IMG/VR virus record: IMGVR_UViG_2671181094_000006
Source of the DNA: a virus
Taxonomy: Duplodnaviria; Heunggongvirae; Uroviricota; Caudoviricetes
Direction: 5' to 3' (one strand)
DNA: 18,188 nt
This document shows positions 755 to 16,961 of this stretch, in pieces (the first letter of the stretch is position 1; each line of letters begins with the position of its first letter). A program made the position numbers and the translations under genes. The notes under the pieces were generated by a model. The model saw only the letters and a program-made list of their open reading frames with translations. It had not been told where the DNA came from and made no database searches.

Positions 755-1294
755 TTAATCCATGAGGCTGTTCAGTGCTTGCTCAACACTTTCATACTTC
801 TGCGTAGTTGGTTTACCTGTTGCGTTTTTAACCATTGAGAACAAAACCACCTCGCCGCTTAGGTCTGAAACACCAGTTGACTCTAAATACGGCAATAATT
901 CTTTCTCATAGAACTCAATTTCTTTTAGTAGCATTTCATCAGGCCTACCAGCCCAAGAATTACGCTCCGGGGACTTTCCACGTTTTATAGAGTAATTAAG
1001 CGAAAATTCTTTATTTTCATATTTGAACTCAACTGCACCATCACAACCAAAGAAGCTTCCTGTGAGTTTTGAGAAATCAATGAGAGTATCAAGGCCGCCG
1101 TTATAAGTGGCTTTCAACTTAGGAGTCTGGCCTGTAATTGTAAATCCTTTAGATTTAAAAAATTCCAAAACATCTTTCTGAATAGCGGTAGCAGCATCAT
1201 TTATTTGTTTATTCAACAACTCGCGCCGAGGAGCGCTGAATTCTTCAATTTTTGCTTTAAGATCTTGTAGTTTCATTTTGTTAGCTAATGACAT
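755..1294 (-). CDS. Hypothetical protein (179 aa), AT-rich orphan at the hpt-proximal island end
   Basis: The ORF in the track is 755-1369. I chose the ATG at 1294 (MSLANKMKLQDLK...) because AAGGA lies 5-6 nt upstream. It is visibly more AT-rich than its neighbours. I recognise no family. Confidence 0.7.
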   Translation of the reverse strand: MSLANKMKLQDLKAKIEEFSAPRRELLNKQINDAATAIQKDVLEFFKSKGFTITGQTPKLKATYNGGLDTLIDFSKLTGSFFGCDGAVEFKYENKEFSLNYSIKRGKSPERNSWAGRPDEMLLKEIEFYEKELLPYLESTGVSDLSGEVVLFSMVKNATGKPTTQKYESVEQALNSLMD

Positions 1295-1547
1295 ATAAAT
1301 TCCTTGTATATCCAGAGTAATAGCTGTGCATAGTCTATGCGATTTCATCCTACTGCTATAAAACATCAAATTCCATAAACATAACCATCAATTAGTTATA
1401 AATGCCTCGATGTTGAATGCGTCCCCCATACTCAACCGGGAATGGGCTGAGCACATTTATCATGACTGTGACCACCAGCCATGACGGCGGATTGTCATGA
1501 ATTACTAATGTATGATAGCACTGTCATACAATAAGGAATCTCCCACT

Positions 1548-1907
1548 ATGAGACTAACCAGCCGCAAAAAGACGATACTCAGCTACTTCGAACCGGATAA
1601 CCGCGACTGGGTGACGGGTGAGATCGGCGCACCTCCCCTTGATGTATCCGGCGTGGCGTACCTGCTGTATGGGACAGGCCTCGAAGACAACCGGCACTGG
1701 CTCGAATCCACCAGACGAACGCTGGAAGCAATGGTGAAAGATGGGTTGCTGGAGAGGTACCGGAGCAGGGAGGCGCGGAGTATCGTTATGGGCGGCGAGA
1801 CGACCGCTACCGTTGTCCGTTACGGCCTGCCGGGTACCGTTTCAGTGGTACGCGATACGGGAGGTGCAGACGGCACGATAGAAGGCGAATATGTGCGGGT
1901 CGTTTAA
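1548..1907 (+). CDS. Winged-helix DNA-binding protein, module A (119 aa); paralog of 5930-6289
   Basis: The ATG at 1548 follows AAGGAA. The layout is H1 KKTILSYF, H2 VSGVAYLL, H3 STRRTLEAMVKDGLLER, wing ATVVRYGLPG. It is roughly 70 percent identical by eye to the 5930-6289 product. Confidence 0.8.
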   Translation: MRLTSRKKTILSYFEPDNRDWVTGEIGAPPLDVSGVAYLLYGTGLEDNRHWLESTRRTLEAMVKDGLLERYRSREARSIVMGGETTATVVRYGLPGTVSVVRDTGGADGTIEGEYVRVV

Positions 1908-2095
1908 CGACGTGGATTATCTGGCCTCTTCCACTGGTAGGCTGGTGCCGTCATCCTCCGGCGGTGCCGTTCTTTAGCAGCGAGCGTTCCCGCAACCCTG
2001 CAACGTAACTCCAGCATATCGGTGGCATTCAGCTCATTCCCCTGCAGGCGGGCCAGCTCTTCAATTACCGCCTCGATTTTCTTCTGTTTTAACAC
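1904..2095 (-). CDS. Small protein (63 aa) with a conserved C-terminal APAYQWK(R/K)P..PRR tail, module A
   Basis: GTG start with AGGAAG 8 nt upstream. The C-terminal 15 residues match the 6945-7130 product. Its stop codon overlaps the stop of the convergent 1548-1907 gene within TTAA (1904-1907). Confidence 0.6.
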   Translation of the reverse strand: MLKQKKIEAVIEELARLQGNELNATDMLELRCRVAGTLAAKERHRRRMTAPAYQWKRPDNPRR

Positions 2096-2201
2096 GCTAT
2101 ATCTTCCTGCTCTATAGGCTCACCGGCTACGCCCTGAGCATCGTTATAAAAAGCCAGCCCCGGAGGGCTGGAATAACAGGAGCCCGCTGGCACACTTTGC
2201 T

Positions 2202-2789
2202 TTAATCGGTATCGTCGGCCAGGGCATACAGCAACGAAGGGATCACTCTCCGCATGGCTGTTTCTTCGGTTTCATCGCTCATGAGAGTCAGGGTGTAATC
2301 CCGGCACTCGTAAATCACATCATATGCAGACAGGCCGAACGCGCCGCCCGCAATGATCTGCCCAATTTCAACATCTGGCGTTTCAACAATCGACAGCCGG
2401 TAGCCGCCGAACGTCACAGGAGGGTTATAAGGCCCTTCGCTTACAAACAGCTCTACGGCCTTTGCAGCAACCTGGGCTCGTTCGTCCGGGTCCACCCCGG
2501 ACACCTTACCGGCACCTGACACCATGATGCGCTTAATCTCCGCAACACTCATTTCCACCAGCGTATACCCCTGCACCTCACCAGCTGGAGCAGGCTTGGT
2601 TTTACCCCTGGCATTCTTCGTACGCGGGTCACTGGCGCTGCGGTATCGTGCCAGATAAGTATCACAGGCCTCCTGGTCAATCTTCCCGTCAACCCGCGCC
2701 GGAAATCCTTCATGACTCTCCCAGTTATACAGTGCCTGCCGGCTCATTCCGGCATGTTTTGCGTACTGGCTGACGCTCATTAGTGACAT
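2202..2789 (-). CDS. Nu1-like (small-terminase-type) HTH protein; candidate packaging-redirection (Rpp-like) or small terminase subunit
   Basis: The ATG at 2789 has AGGAG 7 nt upstream. The N-terminus MSVSQYAKHAGMSRQALYNW...FP resembles the lambda Nu1 N-terminal winged HTH (KKQLADIFGASIRTIQNWQEQGMP). A repeat field lies immediately upstream, as cosB does for Nu1. Confidence 0.7.
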   Translation of the reverse strand: MSLMSVSQYAKHAGMSRQALYNWESHEGFPARVDGKIDQEACDTYLARYRSASDPRTKNARGKTKPAPAGEVQGYTLVEMSVAEIKRIMVSGAGKVSGVDPDERAQVAAKAVELFVSEGPYNPPVTFGGYRLSIVETPDVEIGQIIAGGAFGLSAYDVIYECRDYTLTLMSDETEETAMRRVIPSLLYALADDTD

Positions 2790-2826
2790 AATTTTTCTCC
2801 TGCCTCATTGTCACCGGCTGGCCAGT

Positions 2827-3033
2827 GTGTCAACCCGCCGGCGGGAAACTGTCAATCAAACGTCAAGGGATCAACCGCTTGACACTTTTTTCTGTCAACT
2901 TGACACTTTTCGGGCTGAAAGTGTCAATCAAACTGTCAATCAAAACTTTCACGAATTCCCCTGCATCACGCGCCGCCTCTGGACCTTAACAACCTGACAA
3001 CAAAAAAGTGTCAAGTGTAAAGTGTCAATCAAA
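2827..3033 (-). repeat. Repeat field upstream of the Nu1-like gene; candidate cosB-like binding sites or a promoter cluster
   Basis: Four exact same-orientation copies of TGTCAATCAAA lie at 2850, 2922, 2934 and 3023. Extra TGTCAA copies lie at 2828, 2893 and 3009. Inverted TTGACA copies lie at 2879 and 2900. A TGTCAAcTTGACA palindrome spans 2893-2905. A perfect 12-bp palindrome CCCGCCGGCGGG spans 2834-2845. Confidence 0.55.
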
Positions 3034-3137
3034 TTGAAAACCTGCAGCTACAAAAACACTGCGGCGCGCAATGCCCGTGCCTTACAAAAGTCTCAGGAAG
3101 GACCCATTTTTTCTGAGGGCCATTCCATAGTTATCAC

Positions 3138-3563
3138 TTAATGAACTTCCGGCATCACAGGCCATTCAATATCTGGGGCATCATCAGGGTTAACACGACT
3201 GAGCAGAACGGAGTATTTTTCCCAGTGTTCCAGTCGCGTTTTTTCATCCAAGGTAGCCATTCCGTATTTCACAGCACGCGCTAAAGGGACGATAACGTCC
3301 TCAGCCTTTGTACGTTGCCGCTCTTTTTCAGCCCCAGCCAGCCTGGATAACTGTGCTTTGGTCTGTGGAGGTACATCGACCCACGAGGGCAAGCCATCAG
3401 CCCCTACCCCCCTTTGCTTACCTTCTGGTGGAACCCTGGTGAACTCGTGAAAAACGTTATCACTGACTGCTATAAGGTCCGCTGGTAGAGAATTGTTGTC
3501 CCGATAAGCTGGTAATAATTCATCAGGGTAAAAACACGCCGTTGACGCACTAAAATGATACAT
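3138..3563 (-). CDS. Tail fibre assembly chaperone (Tfa family)
   Basis: The start MYHFSASTACFYP is typical of Tfa proteins. The C-terminus HWEKYSVLLSRVNPDDAPDIEWPVMP matches the conserved Tfa tail (W.KYRVLLNRVD...APDIEWP). The start lies 2 nt after the fibre gene stop. Confidence 0.85.
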   Translation of the reverse strand: MYHFSASTACFYPDELLPAYRDNNSLPADLIAVSDNVFHEFTRVPPEGKQRGVGADGLPSWVDVPPQTKAQLSRLAGAEKERQRTKAEDVIVPLARAVKYGMATLDEKTRLEHWEKYSVLLSRVNPDDAPDIEWPVMPEVH

Positions 3564-3565
3564 GA

Positions 3566-4099
3566 CTATTCCCCTATAGCTAACCATCCAAAATTATCTG
3601 CATTACCCGAACTGCCGCTGATCCAGCCATATGCACGGAAACCGGAATTGGAATCATTGGTTACGGACACGTAACGATTTCCATCTGCGTACTTCGTAGC
3701 AACAATAGCAATAGCCCGCTTAGGAAAAGGTATCGGATACTGAACATTACCTGATGGTGAATTAATAGTGGCAGTTCCCATTTGAACAATAATATTTTTC
3801 TTTTCACCTGATGGTGTTCGGGTAGGAATAATACAGTAACCCTGTGAAGTAAGGGCACCTACGATGGGTTCAGATAGAAGGGCGGTGATCCTCAACTCAT
3901 CAATAACTTCGTTTAACTGACCATCATTTTCAGGCTCAAGCTGGCGGCCAGAACCCTCTACCACGCCCACCATCTCACGCTGCCAGGTATTAAAAATATC
4001 GGCAACAAGAATTGTTGGTGATACCCCATTAGCAACATTACCTTGTGTAAATTCCCCATTACTATCAGCAGTATCAGTGACTGAACTTATCTTACGCAT
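3566..4099 (-). CDS. Short tail fibre / receptor-binding tip protein (177 aa)
   Basis: The N-terminal motif FTQGNVANGVSPTILVADIFNTWQREMVGVVEGSG..L.....QL resembles the conserved tail-fibre motif (T...A.WLN..QEEL.NVI...G). The C-terminal GYCIIP...IIVQMG...VQYPIPFP...FGWLAIGE resembles gp53-like tail-fibre C-terminal domains. A Tfa gene follows directly. Confidence 0.8.
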   Translation of the reverse strand: MRKISSVTDTADSNGEFTQGNVANGVSPTILVADIFNTWQREMVGVVEGSGRQLEPENDGQLNEVIDELRITALLSEPIVGALTSQGYCIIPTRTPSGEKKNIIVQMGTATINSPSGNVQYPIPFPKRAIAIVATKYADGNRYVSVTNDSNSGFRAYGWISGSSGNADNFGWLAIGE

Positions 4100-4127
4100 T
4101 ATGCATATCCTTTAATTGATATCTTCG

Positions 4128-4595
4128 CTATATAGAAAGCGTATCTGCCATACTCACCGGCTCGATATACTTCTCAAGCGCTAACAGAGCGGCGTTAAAA
4201 CCAGCACGATAGCCGTTTGTGTCACCGTTAATCATGCTGTGTTGAAATGCCGCCATGTTCTGGTCTTCGGCATCAAGGAACTCCCAGCCAGGATAAACTT
4301 TCTCCATAGCCCGCCGGGTAAAACGACTGAGCTGGCGAGCGCTGCCTTTTAGTCTGGCAATAGCCTTCTGATGTGGGATCCCTTCCGCGATAAGATGAAA
4401 TGCCTGTATCGGATTTTGTTTTGCCGCTTTGCTCACCGCTATCAGATGCGCATCAGAATGGGGGCATTCAGGGAGTTCCTCTTCTTCAAGCGATTGCTGA
4501 AGCTGGTGCATACGCTGCATACGGCGCCCGGAAAAGCCATATGCATGCGCATCAGGTTGCTGCTTGTTGAGGTGCTGAAAGTTCATAACGCTCAT
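4128..4595 (-). CDS. Hypothetical protein; paralog of the central domain of the 4607-5383 product
   Basis: It shares a ~95-aa domain with the upstream gene: AVS..AK.NP ... F....ME...P.WEF.D.E ... D.NGY.A....AL.AL.K..EP. The start may instead be the ATG at 4586 (MNFQHL), which has better GGAG spacing. Confidence 0.75.
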   Translation of the reverse strand: MSVMNFQHLNKQQPDAHAYGFSGRRMQRMHQLQQSLEEEELPECPHSDAHLIAVSKAAKQNPIQAFHLIAEGIPHQKAIARLKGSARQLSRFTRRAMEKVYPGWEFLDAEDQNMAAFQHSMINGDTNGYRAGFNAALLALEKYIEPVSMADTLSI

Positions 4596-4606
4596 CTCCG
4601 CAGCTC

Positions 4607-5383
4607 TCAGAGAGGAACCTGCGATTTTAGGAGTTCGGCTTCTCGTGCCGGCCCTTCAATCTTGCCATTCACCCGACGGGTATCCCCCGGCAGGCTCACA
4701 CCAGATGCCCGGATACGATCGTTACGGCGTGCAGCAGCCTGCGCGACCTCTTCCCGGTACTCTTCGTCAGCCTTACGGCGAGCATTCACATTCTGAGGTG
4801 ACATAGGGTCATAGTCGTTTTGCATCTTAGATGCCTTGCTGGCTAATGCCTTAATCTCGTCTTCTGTCAGAGGCTCTTCCATCTTCTTCAGCGCCTTCAG
4901 AGCGCTACTCTGGGCAGCAGAGTAACCATTTGCATCACGGTTCTGCGTTGAAAACGTTAGCGCCGAGCGAGCTTTCTCTTCGTCATCCTGAAATTCCCAG
5001 GTCGGGTCATTCTCTTCCATAAACTTTTGGGTAAACACAGAAAGCGCCATCGGCGACGATGCCAGTTGCAGCTTTATTTTCTTCGAAGAAAGTTCCGTTT
5101 CCTTCAGCAAACGAACCGCCAGAACCGGGTTATTTTTTGCCTCCGGGGAAACCGCGACATTGTGGCCGCGACTGTGCTGCTTAGGTCTGGCGATCCGGGC
5201 GTCGTCACTGTCCAGTTTCAGTGGCACATTCCCGTTATCAGACTCGCCTTTCGTTTTGGTTTTGCCTGACAGATGCGAGAAATCAAACATGGATGGGTTT
5301 TCCTCAGATAGTTGGGGCTGTTTTTTCTTATCTTTCGTACCGAACGCTCTTAGCGCCCATGCGGGTAACGTCATTAACGGCAT
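4607..5383 (-). CDS. Hypothetical protein (258 aa), charged and Lys-rich, with a domain paralogous to 4128-4595
   Basis: The ATG at 5383 has GAGGAAA about 7 nt upstream. The alternative ATG at 5290 would remove the overlap with the 66-aa ORF. Confidence 0.75.
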   Translation of the reverse strand: MPLMTLPAWALRAFGTKDKKKQPQLSEENPSMFDFSHLSGKTKTKGESDNGNVPLKLDSDDARIARPKQHSRGHNVAVSPEAKNNPVLAVRLLKETELSSKKIKLQLASSPMALSVFTQKFMEENDPTWEFQDDEEKARSALTFSTQNRDANGYSAAQSSALKALKKMEEPLTEDEIKALASKASKMQNDYDPMSPQNVNARRKADEEYREEVAQAAARRNDRIRASGVSLPGDTRRVNGKIEGPAREAELLKSQVPL

Positions 5384-5528
5384 GGCATGCTTTCCTCTGG
5401 TTGGCGATTATCCGGCGGAGCCACATGAGTTTTTTCTTCTGCTTTCTGAACAGGCGCTCTCTCTTCGCCGCGGCAAACCATTCCGGTAACACCCAGCTTG
5501 TTTTGCTCCTGCACTCCTGGCACGGCAT
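5328..5528 (-). CDS. Small basic protein (66 aa), hypothetical
   Basis: Its ATG overlaps the stop of the upstream RHH-like gene in TAATG (5526-5530), which suggests translational coupling. It is very Arg/Lys-rich. It overlaps the annotated start of the next gene by 56 nt, so one of the two starts is uncertain. Confidence 0.5.
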   Translation of the reverse strand: MPCQECRSKTSWVLPEWFAAAKRERLFRKQKKKLMWLRRIIANQRKACHAVNDVTRMGAKSVRYER

Positions 5529-5704
5529 TACTTTTTATTTGTTTCATGTCTACTAATCCCCTGACGTAAAAGGTGACGCGCCAGCTCCTGAATACTCGGG
5601 GCTGCGCCTACGGTAGAACGTCGGCATTCATCCTCACGGAGGCGCTGTAAACCTTCGAGAATCGGCTGATCAACAAGAATCGGCTTTTTGTTAGTGACTG
5701 CCAT
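5528..5704 (-). CDS. Small ribbon-helix-helix-like protein (58 aa), first gene of the tail-fibre operon; not in the supplied ORF track
   Basis: Hand translation gives MAVTNKKPILVDQPILEGLQRLREDECRRSTVGAAPSIQELARHLLRQGISRHETNKK. A strong SD, AGGAGG, lies 7 nt upstream of the ATG at 5704. The strand-helix-helix pattern is typical of CopG/Arc proteins. Confidence 0.6.
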   Translation of the reverse strand: MAVTNKKPILVDQPILEGLQRLREDECRRSTVGAAPSIQELARHLLRQGISRHETNKK

Positions 5705-5929
5705 TTCCTGACCTCCTGATACTGGTTAAACGTACATACTTCTTCTGTATGGGGTTAACTTATGATCAATAAAATAAATCGTCAAGATAAAATATTTTAA
5801 TTAAAAGGGTTGCGGACTACATGAGGGGGTACTGATTGCGTTACAAAATGGAGGGGAAAGTTAAGTAGCCATTCCTCACCGCTTCTTATTGTATGATAGT
5901 GCTATCCCACAATAAGGAACCTGCCAGCC

Positions 5930-6289
5930 ATGAGAATGACCAGCCGCAAAAAAGAGATACTCAGCTACTTTGAACCGGATAACCGCGATTGGGTAACAGG
6001 TGAGATTGGTGCGCCGCCGTTCGATGTGTCGGGTGTGGCCTACCTGCTTCATGGCATGGGATCATTCGGTAAACGCCACCAGCTCGAATCAACCCGGCGT
6101 ACGCTCGAAAGCATGGTTGCCGGTGGACTGCTTGAGCGAATGACAGTGTATGAATCCCGTCAGGTACGGCGCGGCGGTGAAACCAGCGCAACAGTCGTGC
6201 GCTACGGTTTACCGGGACAGTGTGCCGTTGTGCGAGATAGTGGCGGCGCTGATAACGCAATACCAGGTGAATACATGCGGGTCAGTTAA
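5930..6289 (+). CDS. Winged-helix DNA-binding protein, module B (119 aa); paralog of 1548-1907
   Basis: MRMTSRKKEILSYFEPDNRDWVTGEIGAPPFDVSGVAYLLHG... The ~40-bp leader and operator (TGTATGATAG..CACAATAAGGAA) are conserved with copy A. Confidence 0.8.
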   Translation: MRMTSRKKEILSYFEPDNRDWVTGEIGAPPFDVSGVAYLLHGMGSFGKRHQLESTRRTLESMVAGGLLERMTVYESRQVRRGGETSATVVRYGLPGQCAVVRDSGGADNAIPGEYMRVS

Positions 6290-6824
6290 GAGCCTGCAAT
6301 CTGTCGTTGATGCGGCTCAGGTCGTAAACCCGGCGTTCAATATCCAGCATCAGGAAATTGTGGATCTCGGCCTGCTCAGGATTATCAGACTCTCTGGCCT
6401 GTAATAGCAATTCATTGTATCCATGCAAGCCGCCTGAGTTTTCCGCCGGGGTGGTGCCTTTCCCACGCAGGCAGCTAATGGGCTGATTACTCGTATCGTG
6501 TGTTTGCTTCTCCAGCACAATGACGCAATCCCACCAGTCGCCAAAGTCATACGTGTAAACCAGCTTGTCACCCTCATTCTGGAGCGCTGCCCATAGTGGT
6601 GTGATTGCCGCGTTACCCATGCTTTCACCCTCACCCCATACGCGATACTCGCTACCTAGATCACCTTTACGGCCTTTCTCGAACATATACAGATGTTCGT
6701 CATTCCAGCCAAAAGCCAACTGGATCACCGCGTGAAGTTCACTAAAGGGGATTTGCTCTGGAACCAGCACACGCCGCCATATTGGTGGTTTGCTGTCTCG
6801 GATGGTTATCTTTAGCTGGTACAT
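6282..6824 (-). CDS. Plasmid pRiA4b ORF-3-like (PF07929-type) protein, 180 aa
   Basis: From the ATG at 6824, MYQLKITIRDSKPPIWRRVLVPEQIPFSELHAVIQLAFGWNDEHLYMFE matches the family signature (vyqLkv.L....PpIWRr..Vp....L..LH..Iq.a.GW.d.HL..F). The track ORF starts further upstream, at 6872. The 3' end overlaps the convergent 5930-6289 gene by 8 nt. Confidence 0.8.
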   Translation of the reverse strand: MYQLKITIRDSKPPIWRRVLVPEQIPFSELHAVIQLAFGWNDEHLYMFEKGRKGDLGSEYRVWGEGESMGNAAITPLWAALQNEGDKLVYTYDFGDWWDCVIVLEKQTHDTSNQPISCLRGKGTTPAENSGGLHGYNELLLQARESDNPEQAEIHNFLMLDIERRVYDLSRINDRLQALN

Positions 6825-6944
6825 GCAAATCCTGAATAAATGCGAATCGGAAGGATAACGATACTGACGCACTCACAATTCTGTAAAGGTGAATAAAGGT
6901 AATTTGCTTAATACGCATAAGTTACATGTGGAATAATCCCATAT

Positions 6945-7130
6945 CTACCTGCGCGGCGCTGGCTTCTTCCACTGGTAGGCAGGCGCTCGCATCATCTCCC
7001 CGAACCGTTTACGCCGGACTGTATCAGCTTCAATAATACGTTCCATCTCCCGAACCTCTACCGGGGTAAGCTGGTGGCCTTCATGCTCCATTTTGGCAGC
7101 GGTCAATAAAGCTATTTCGCGTGGTGTCAT
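6945..7130 (-). CDS. Small protein (61 aa) with a conserved C-terminal APAYQWKKPAPRR tail, module B
   Basis: ATG start with AAGGG upstream. The C-terminus is shared with the 1904-2095 product. Confidence 0.65.
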   Translation of the reverse strand: MTPREIALLTAAKMEHEGHQLTPVEVREMERIIEADTVRRKRFGEMMRAPAYQWKKPAPRR

Positions 7131-7337: not shown

Positions 7338-7363
7338 ACGCCCCGTGCGGGCGTTTTGCTTTT
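7338..7363 (+). terminator. Plus-strand-oriented intrinsic terminator
   Basis: The stem is ACGCCC (7338-7343) / GGGCGT (7349-7354) with a 5-nt loop, followed by TTTTGCTTTT. The U-tract is present only on the plus strand, although the adjacent coding genes are on the minus strand. Confidence 0.45.
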
Positions 7364-7973
7364 ACAAAGTCAGGCCAATGCCTCTGGCTGCTTTCCCCGT
7401 CTTACGCTCAATCACGCCCGTGATTCTATCTACTACCGGACTGAATGCCTGCCAGTAAGCCATCTCCATTGCTGACAACTCTGCCCGCTTCCTGTCAAAC
7501 GTAGCCCAGCGCATCCCCTTTGGTTTTGGGAACATGCGAATATCATTAAACAGGTTATTGGTAAGGTCATTGTTGCCCCATATCGCGCATCGCTGCTGGC
7601 GTATCTTCATTCGCATCCTGTCCAGTCTGTCGGCGCTCTGGCTTTTATAGTGGAGTTTCCAGCATCCCCGGCAGCCAATATCTTTTTTGCCGATATACAG
7701 CTTCGCTACCCGCTTTATGCAGTGGGGACAGACGTACCATTCCCGCACACCATACCCGGCTTGTGTGGTCGTGGTTCTGATTGCCCGTGTAACGCCGTTG
7801 ATTGTCATGGCGTAGCTGTCGGCTTGCCGGAAGGTATAAAACGTTCCGCTTTCGGTCTGGGTATAAAGCTGCGTCCCCGGTTCGGCGTCCGCCAGCCTGC
7901 TACGCATGTGCGCAAGGAATGGCAACCCTATGCGGGGCAGGTCGGTGGTATAGCTGCGTGTTCTGCCTCTCAC
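7362..7973 (-). CDS. Zinc-ribbon protein (203 aa), hypothetical
   Basis: The GTG start at 7973 has AGGAGG 7 nt upstream. The motif is CPHC-X15-CRGC (WYVCPHCIKRVAKLYIGKKDIGCRGCW). Confidence 0.8.
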   Translation of the reverse strand: MRGRTRSYTTDLPRIGLPFLAHMRSRLADAEPGTQLYTQTESGTFYTFRQADSYAMTINGVTRAIRTTTTQAGYGVREWYVCPHCIKRVAKLYIGKKDIGCRGCWKLHYKSQSADRLDRMRMKIRQQRCAIWGNNDLTNNLFNDIRMFPKPKGMRWATFDRKRAELSAMEMAYWQAFSPVVDRITGVIERKTGKAARGIGLTL

Positions 7974-16869: not shown

Positions 16870-16961
16870 ATCGTCACCCTCAACGCCCCTAAATAACTTG
16901 CGGGCCAGGCGGGTAGGGTTTCCCGCTTTTCGGTTGGCCGACCTAGACCCGCAATATCAGT

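Follow-up and report, generated by a model that had tools for sequence, protein, structure and literature searches.

Phage satellites have been reported in the literature to carry defence cargo, and the classical Gram-negative PICI is described there as an island with int, alpA and pri genes and no structural genes. We analyzed a stretch of 18,188 nt (IMG/VR virus record IMGVR_UViG_2671181094_000006), hereafter called the window. Like a classical PICI, it brings together an integrase, an AlpA-type regulator and a primase in one island, and no capsid, portal or large terminase gene was found among its ORFs when these were scanned with Pfam and PHROGs. An initial annotation of this DNA had placed it within a satellite, and the gene content bears this out: the element is a PICI-type satellite. 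The integrase is encoded at the right end, together with AlpA (PF05930, E 4.3e-10), a Bro-N anti-repressor, a 925-aa primase-helicase (domains Zn_Ribbon_Prim, Toprim_3 and DUF927; phrog_1139 match at 8.8e-180), SSB and PerC. The syntenic integrase is annotated as a tyrosine recombinase. Atypically for a classical PICI, the island also encodes the C-terminal fragment of a tail fibre and a tail-fibre assembly protein.

In E. coli 2022CK-00450, a copy of the satellite with 98% identity is flanked by dinD and yicC, and satellite copies are called viral in IMG/VR. The circularised form of the satellite family is represented by a 22,859-bp record from K. pneumoniae 4743 ('plasmid unnamed1', NZ_CP033626.1; L024), which was deposited as a non-mobilizable plasmid. 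It carries int, an AlpA-like HTH gene, AntA/B, Icd, primase, SSB, PerC, sie, a tape measure gene, the cargo gene studied here (PRiA4) and the gene for a 119-aa protein. On the circular map, the operon runs through primase, SSB, PerC, a set of variable genes, a 203-aa gene and a 61-aa gene to PRiA4, which comes last and stands against the convergent 119-aa gene. In the circular form, the 119-aa gene adjoins attP and int, and faces the integrase across the attachment region. The relevant features of the window are as follows.

1512..2095: paralogous empty slot, in which a 131-aa gene (1512..1907, plus strand) overlaps a 63-aa gene (1904..2095, minus strand) by 4 nt
5887..5926, plus strand: conserved, partly palindromic sequence just 5' of the 119-aa gene, candidate promoter or operator (80% identical to 1506-1545)
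5930..6289, plus strand: convergent backbone gene for a 119-aa, putative winged-helix protein at the att-proximal satellite end (ORF)
6282..6824, minus strand: PRiA4 cargo gene, encoding a 180-aa PF07929 (pRiA4b ORF-3 / MM3350-like) protein (ORF and Pfam)
6825..6944, minus strand: lower-GC, 120-nt spacer 5' of PRiA4 with a promoter-like site and an AGGA ribosome-binding site
6945..7130, minus strand: gene for a 61-aa basic protein (pI 10.1), last backbone gene of the long operon
7362..7973, minus strand: gene for a 203-aa zinc-ribbon-like protein, very basic (pI 10.3, +20), upstream backbone neighbour (ORF, CxxC...CxxC)
16886-16953, minus strand: int-alpA RNA motif between the integrase gene and the next gene (Rfam RF02996, 62.6 bits, gathering 35.8)

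The tail genes of the window lie at 3138-4099 on the minus strand. One product, of 177 aa, is a tail-fibre C-terminal protein (Gp53-like_C, 1.7e-10; phrog_1396), and the other, of 149 aa, is a protein for tail-fibre assembly (Caudo_TAP, 1.3e-30). Enterobacter and Klebsiella relatives (L002-L008 and L024) encode a tape-measure-like gene of about 1000 aa. Tail parts encoded by the satellite could alter the host range of hijacked particles. A 195-aa protein encoded within 2202-3036 has a small-terminase/Nu1-like N-terminal HTH (phrog_57, 7.9e-8), and directly 5' of its gene are four direct repeats of AAAGTGTCAATCAAAC (2846-3036) that are found again in a related locus (L001). These repeats are a candidate packaging-recognition or operator site. 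The tail genes and the 195-aa gene belong to a second, partial satellite 'right end' that sits in tandem at 755-5704, next to hpt, where genes for 58-aa, 258-aa, 155-aa, tail fibre, Tfa, 195-aa and 63-aa proteins converge on the 131-aa paralogue of the 119-aa gene. In L141 and L150 the 119-aa homologue is followed by these genes in the same order, and the arrangement points to tandem or nested integration. A search for att repeats at the two satellite ends found none above 16 nt, either inside the window or in L001.

The initial annotation had recognised a PF07929-type signature at 6282-6824, and the residues it quoted are those of the translated ORF. The 180-aa protein begins with MYQLKITIRDSKPPIWRRVLVP, ends in ...LQALN, and matches Pfam PF07929 (PRiA4_ORF3) with E=1.8e-42 and 145.4 bits (cut-off 26.6) over residues 2-170, corresponding to model positions 3-167 of 173. 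The solved family member 2I1S also matches by sequence (E=6e-22), far beyond chance. The ORF starts at the ATG at 6824 and stops at the TGA at 6282-6284. All PRiA4 homologues begin with MYQLKI and an AGGA lies about 8 nt 5' of this ATG, so that it, and not the upstream GTG at 6872, is the correct start. The intact gene is under purifying selection (dN/dS 0.08-0.12 against copies with 76-95% identity). PRiA4 is a bona fide PF07929/MM3350-like member, and is already so annotated in RefSeq; the protein has no match in NCBIfam or PHROGs. Two E. coli loci carry disrupted versions of the region. In strain S43 (L152, 3398-3610), PRiA4 is missing the region for its N-terminus and stands in the annotation as a pseudogene ('IS1096 element passenger TnpR family protein'), and strain MB46 (L010, 9001-9419) has a deletion that takes away PRiA4 and shortens the 119-aa gene.

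PRiA4 is co-oriented with and downstream of the 61-aa gene, as had been described; both are on the minus strand. The 61-aa protein retains a C-terminal P..WK.P.PRR motif across satellites. The spacer between the two genes has a GC content of 0.445-0.46 (0.51-0.59 in the flanks) and holds a sigma-70-like sequence at 6887..6858 (TTTACA-18-TATCGT, 9/12) that is only a weak match to the consensus. On the other side, the 3' ends of PRiA4 and the 119-aa gene share 8 nt (6282-6289), and the identical overlap is present in every PRiA4-bearing relative examined. The convergent overlap thus stands as first described. The winged-helix label given to the 119-aa protein is less certain: the protein has no match in Pfam, NCBIfam, PHROG or PDB sequences, and its low-confidence AlphaFold model (two sequences, pLDDT 52) shows a helix and then a beta-hairpin, an order that would fit a winged helix but no more than that. 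The 119-aa gene is itself under purifying selection (dN/dS 0.09-0.17), and its product is 73% identical to the paralogue encoded at 1512..1907. Both gene copies are preceded by the palindromic sequence TTGTATGATAG..CTATC..ACAATAAGGAA (5887-5926 and 1506-1545), a possible autoregulatory operator. No family match was found for the 61-aa protein (Pfam, PADLOC, NCBIfam and PHROG), and no family or PDB match for the 203-aa protein (Pfam, PADLOC, NCBIfam, PHROG and PDB).

PRiA4 had been interpreted as inserted cargo in a satellite slot, and comparison across related elements supported this. We mapped the content up to the 61/63-aa gene at 47 IMG/VR loci encoding relatives of the 119-aa protein, and found the gap between the 119-aa and 61/63-aa genes to be variable among these satellite ends. 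Its contents were as follows.

PRiA4: 10 of the 47 loci
Empty (gap of 130 nt or less): 9 of the 47 loci
141-aa ORF on the plus strand: about 7 of the 47 loci
PemK/MazF-like toxin (Pfam, 1.2e-9)
SocA/Panacea antitoxin with a 145-aa partner (Pfam, 1.6e-18)
AbiD (PADLOC, 2e-55; Pfam Abi_2, 7e-50)
IS3
Three-gene cluster
DUF2280

Occupants can also be combined: a Dabb-domain gene accompanies PRiA4 in K. variicola, and the Atlantibacter slot holds the Panacea pair together with PRiA4 and has no 61-aa gene. Two IMG/VR loci with more distant 119-aa relatives at 64-68% identity (L128 and L137) continue into an ORF of more than 1300 aa in place of the 61-aa gene. This ORF runs off the locus end and looks by eye like a methyltransferase-helicase fusion; these loci may be plasmid- or phage-like elements rather than satellites.

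The window itself contains both a filled and an empty slot. DNA homology between its two satellite ends spans the 119/131-aa gene and the palindromic region upstream, breaks exactly at the 119/131-aa stop codon, and is found again at the 3' end of the 61/63-aa gene. The extra DNA, about 655 nt, therefore consists of PRiA4 and the 120-nt spacer. No inverted or direct repeats were seen at the slot boundaries. Alleles of the 119-aa gene at 85-92% identity are paired with PRiA4, PemK or AbiD, and at greater distance the gene is found beside an empty slot. PRiA4 is nucleotide-identical in the window and in 2022CK-00450, whereas the abutting 119-aa gene differs between them (dS 0.18). Of the 375 carriers among complete E. 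coli genomes, 342 have PRiA4 at 95-99% identity, whereas the 119-aa gene falls at 90-95% in 360. This mismatch in divergence, together with the range of occupants, indicates that the slot is a real exchange site and that PRiA4 behaves as a cassette. Within the PRiA4-carrying lineage, the block of 203-aa, 61-aa, PRiA4 and 119-aa genes is stable, and variability is greatest between PerC and the 203-aa gene. PRiA4 is therefore cargo that has been kept for a long time and does not turn over constantly.

The slot resembles P4-like hotspots and PICI-encoded immune systems in its fixed position between backbone genes of an integrase-bearing satellite, and in the swapping of unrelated genes that include a recognised Abi gene and toxin-antitoxin modules. 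It differs from satellite defence hotspots in that its occupant PRiA4 matches no defence family. A search of PADLOC-DB v2 (5027 models, E<=0.01) gave no match for PRiA4 or for the 61-aa, 119-aa or 203-aa proteins, so that the candidate anti-phage effector of the initial annotation does not belong to a defence family in that collection. To our knowledge, a slot defined by a 61/63-aa gene convergent with a 119-aa gene in an island of the int-alpA-primase-PerC type has not previously been described as a hotspot. The definition of the slot and of its occupants is new, as is the recognition of PF07929 as one of them.

It had also been suggested that PRiA4 acts with the 61-aa protein. The 61/63-aa gene is found as well beside empty slots and slots holding AbiD, PemK or Panacea, and PRiA4 occurs without it in Atlantibacter; we rejected the 61-aa protein as a dedicated partner on this co-occurrence. 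Nor does the pair look like a type II toxin-antitoxin module: Pfam and PADLOC gave neither toxin nor antitoxin family matches, and the 61-aa gene is independent of PRiA4. The 203-aa gene is kept upstream of the slot whether PRiA4 is present or absent. Our comparison assigns the 61-aa, 203-aa and 119-aa genes to the satellite backbone; they are not partners of PRiA4.

At the level of the family, a profile search with PF07929 recovered 27,767 clusters at 50% identity (E<=1e-3), and the PRiA4 satellite alone brings the family into 6.9% of complete E. coli genomes. Phage records rarely contain a relative (4 of 50,697), and a BFVD search with PRiA4 returned nothing significant. The only solved member, 2I1S, is Methanosarcina mazei MM3350 and carries the PDB label 'hypothetical protein'. 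Full-text literature searches found no functional study of PF07929, of MM3350 or of the IS1096 passenger members. The Pfam name, the PDB label, and the plasmid and IS contexts all agree with the earlier description of a family without assigned function that recurs on plasmids and near IS elements. Since no member has an assigned function, membership of PF07929 explains nothing about mechanism.

Many members are multidomain proteins, with tandem copies or fusions to DUF7309 and DUF6930, to HEAT repeats or to unmatched helical regions; no catalytic or otherwise informative fusion was present in the ten multidomain relatives examined. The gene neighbourhoods of individual members are mixed and range from housekeeping to mobile or defence-like. 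All-against-all ORF clustering around 84 phylogenetically diverse homologues, drawn from many phyla with archaea among them, revealed no recurrent neighbour. This, together with the housekeeping contexts, means that a generic defence role for the family is not indicated by context. In the same 84 loci there was no steady link to transposition functions, which had been named as one observation that would speak against an effector role, though such associations do exist.

The AlphaFold model of PRiA4 (48-sequence alignment) is confident, with pLDDT 90.8 and pTM 0.88. Its core is a beta-grasp with a helix at residues 27-38 and strands at 2-8, 16-21, 46-50, 61-64, 87-92, 98-107 and 117-122; three more helices (132-179) come after it. 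The predicted fold is that of 2I1S. The model resembles only 2I1S, SNAPC3 and protein-binding ubiquitin-fold domains, and Foldseek concurs. PRiA4 shares about 9-12% identity with the SUMO-E1 UFD, UBL domains and the SNAPC3 core, which is not evidence of homology, and it lacks the zinc fingers of SNAPC3. Structure comparison found no nuclease, NTPase or other enzyme fold. The C-terminal half, which had been raised as a possible nuclease or NTPase, is instead modelled as part of a single ubiquitin-fold domain plus helices. This structural argument against an enzymatic effector is new for PRiA4, though a protein may be catalytic without having a known catalytic fold. We also considered PRiA4 as a conjugatable ubiquitin-like modifier of the Bil/Bub type, and rejected this because the protein has no C-terminal glycine and no E1, E2 or JAB domain was found in the neighbouring 61-aa, 203-aa and 119-aa proteins.

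Conservation within the family centres on a set of invariant residues (P13, W16, R17, R18, H31, W40 and H44) and near-invariant residues (Y90, Y92, D93, F94, G95, D96, W98, E105, C118, G121, P126, G131, G132 and G135), which together appear to point to a pocket or interface. W16, R17, R18, H31, W40, H44, D93, D96, E105 and C118 could mark a ligand pocket or even an active site. PRiA4 belongs to a divergent enterobacterial satellite clade that is about 37% identical to the rest of PF07929. It retains 28 positions at which 90% or more of the distant alignment members agree, and is substituted at 13 positions conserved in at least 80% of them, including H100C and C125T; H100 is invariant in 39/39 distant members. 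The substitutions of the satellite clade at positions that are 80-100% conserved elsewhere include H46Y, H100C, C125T, D129N, P116I, P127A and W157F. As both His and Cys can bind metal, a metal site may have been remodelled in this clade. The family is acidic (median pI 4.85, net charge -13), and PRiA4 has a pI of 5.0 and a charge of -9, while its backbone neighbours are strongly basic.

We tentatively favour the reading that PRiA4 is an exchangeable satellite cargo gene whose product may be a non-enzymatic binding protein in conflicts between phage, satellite and host. The gene occupies the last position of the long operon, between the backbone 61-aa and convergent 119-aa genes, and probably also has a weak promoter of its own. 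Its predicted product is acidic and forms one compact unit, a ubiquitin-like core with three helices at the C-terminus. In view of the fold class, the charge and fusion partners that are not enzymes, we infer that it may act stoichiometrically, binding and blocking or diverting another protein. The most likely target would be a basic protein that handles nucleic acids and comes from the helper or from an infecting or competing phage. Acidity at the level of PRiA4 is not unusual for cytosolic proteins, however, and this counts against the binding argument. A conflict role, whether in defence or in interference, is suggested by the AbiD and toxin-antitoxin genes that hold the slot elsewhere, while the IS3, DUF2280 and Dabb-domain occupants count against it. 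It is by its location, and by that alone, that PRiA4 is a reasonable candidate for a role in phage conflict.

A somewhat unlikely alternative is that PRiA4 serves host physiology or another phage-unrelated function, for example in small-molecule binding or stress, and travels as neutral or mildly useful baggage. The many homologues among housekeeping genes would fit such a function, as would the invariant aromatic, acidic and basic residues, which suggest a ligand pocket. PICIs also carry non-defence cargo such as PerC, and in K. variicola the gene beside PRiA4 is the Dabb (stress-responsive) gene. Neutral baggage is harder to reconcile with strong purifying selection combined with mosaic spread among satellites, or with a site that otherwise collects Abi and toxin-antitoxin genes. 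In addition, the satellite clade has replaced pocket residues (H46Y, H100C, C125T and D129N), which suggests a change of function.

We consider it unlikely, more so than the physiological reading, that PRiA4 is a counter-defence or establishment factor, an acidic protein that would neutralise a host defence or DNA-binding protein (restriction or nucleoid-type) and so let the satellite, or plasmids and IS elements with relatives, establish in a new cell. The family is acidic, stand-alone and of a protein-binding fold class, and it abounds on plasmids (2796 records, 1896 of them conjugative). Some plasmid copies lie between RelE/ParE toxin-antitoxin modules or beside the partition gene parC. Most, however, are one identical, distantly related copy found with serine recombinase genes, ISKpn19 and qnrS1, and since this copy hitch-hikes with the qnrS1/ISKpn19 module, the plasmid count overstates the independent association. 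The other occupants of the satellite slot are defence or toxin genes and not anti-defence genes, and the charge of PRiA4 is far less extreme than that of classic DNA mimics.

A role in regulating the satellite life cycle, for instance as an anti-repressor or a partner of the 119-aa protein with the 8-nt overlap providing transcriptional coupling, seems improbable. PRiA4 always abuts the 119-aa gene with that conserved overlap, no terminator was found between the convergent genes, and the neighbouring proteins are basic and putatively DNA-binding. Against this, 119-aa alleles at 85-92% identity can have PemK or AbiD beside them instead, and distant alleles no cargo. The overlap is a backbone property, since in the empty slot the 63-aa gene overlaps the 131-aa gene too, and the family is found overwhelmingly outside satellites.

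The idea that PRiA4 is an accessory of recombination or transposition that helps its carrier DNA segment move draws on the RefSeq name of some members ('IS1096 element passenger TnpR family protein'), on the widespread plasmid copy beside serine recombinase genes and ISKpn19 and on a mycobacteriophage copy annotated as 'resolvase', but is very improbable given an acidic protein for which Pfam finds PF07929 and no resolvase or DNA-binding domain, an NCBI name that itself says passenger, the lack of a recurrent recombinase or transposase neighbour in the 84 diverse loci, and slot boundaries without inverted or direct repeats. PRiA4 was separately rejected as a serine resolvase ('TnpR') proper: Pfam finds in it neither the catalytic domain nor an HTH, and its fold is a beta-grasp.

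The preferred reading of PRiA4 as a binding protein in phage conflict can be extended to the whole family, such that PF07929 proteins would be stand-alone, non-enzymatic immunity or interference factors offering a ubiquitin-fold decoy for a conserved protein of phages or mobile elements. We regard this extension as unlikely. If it is true, the satellite copy would protect the host or sabotage the helper, and a first function would be gained for a family of about 28,000 clusters across bacteria and archaea.

PF07929 is among the larger families that have a solved structure and no function, and the satellite slot offers it a defined biological setting with natural controls, namely sister islands whose slots are empty or otherwise filled. 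If PRiA4 acts on phage, a non-enzymatic, single-gene mechanism would be added to satellite-borne immunity, and thousands of genes would be annotated. If it does not, the slot would still give searches for defence cargo in PICI-type islands a new and useful target.
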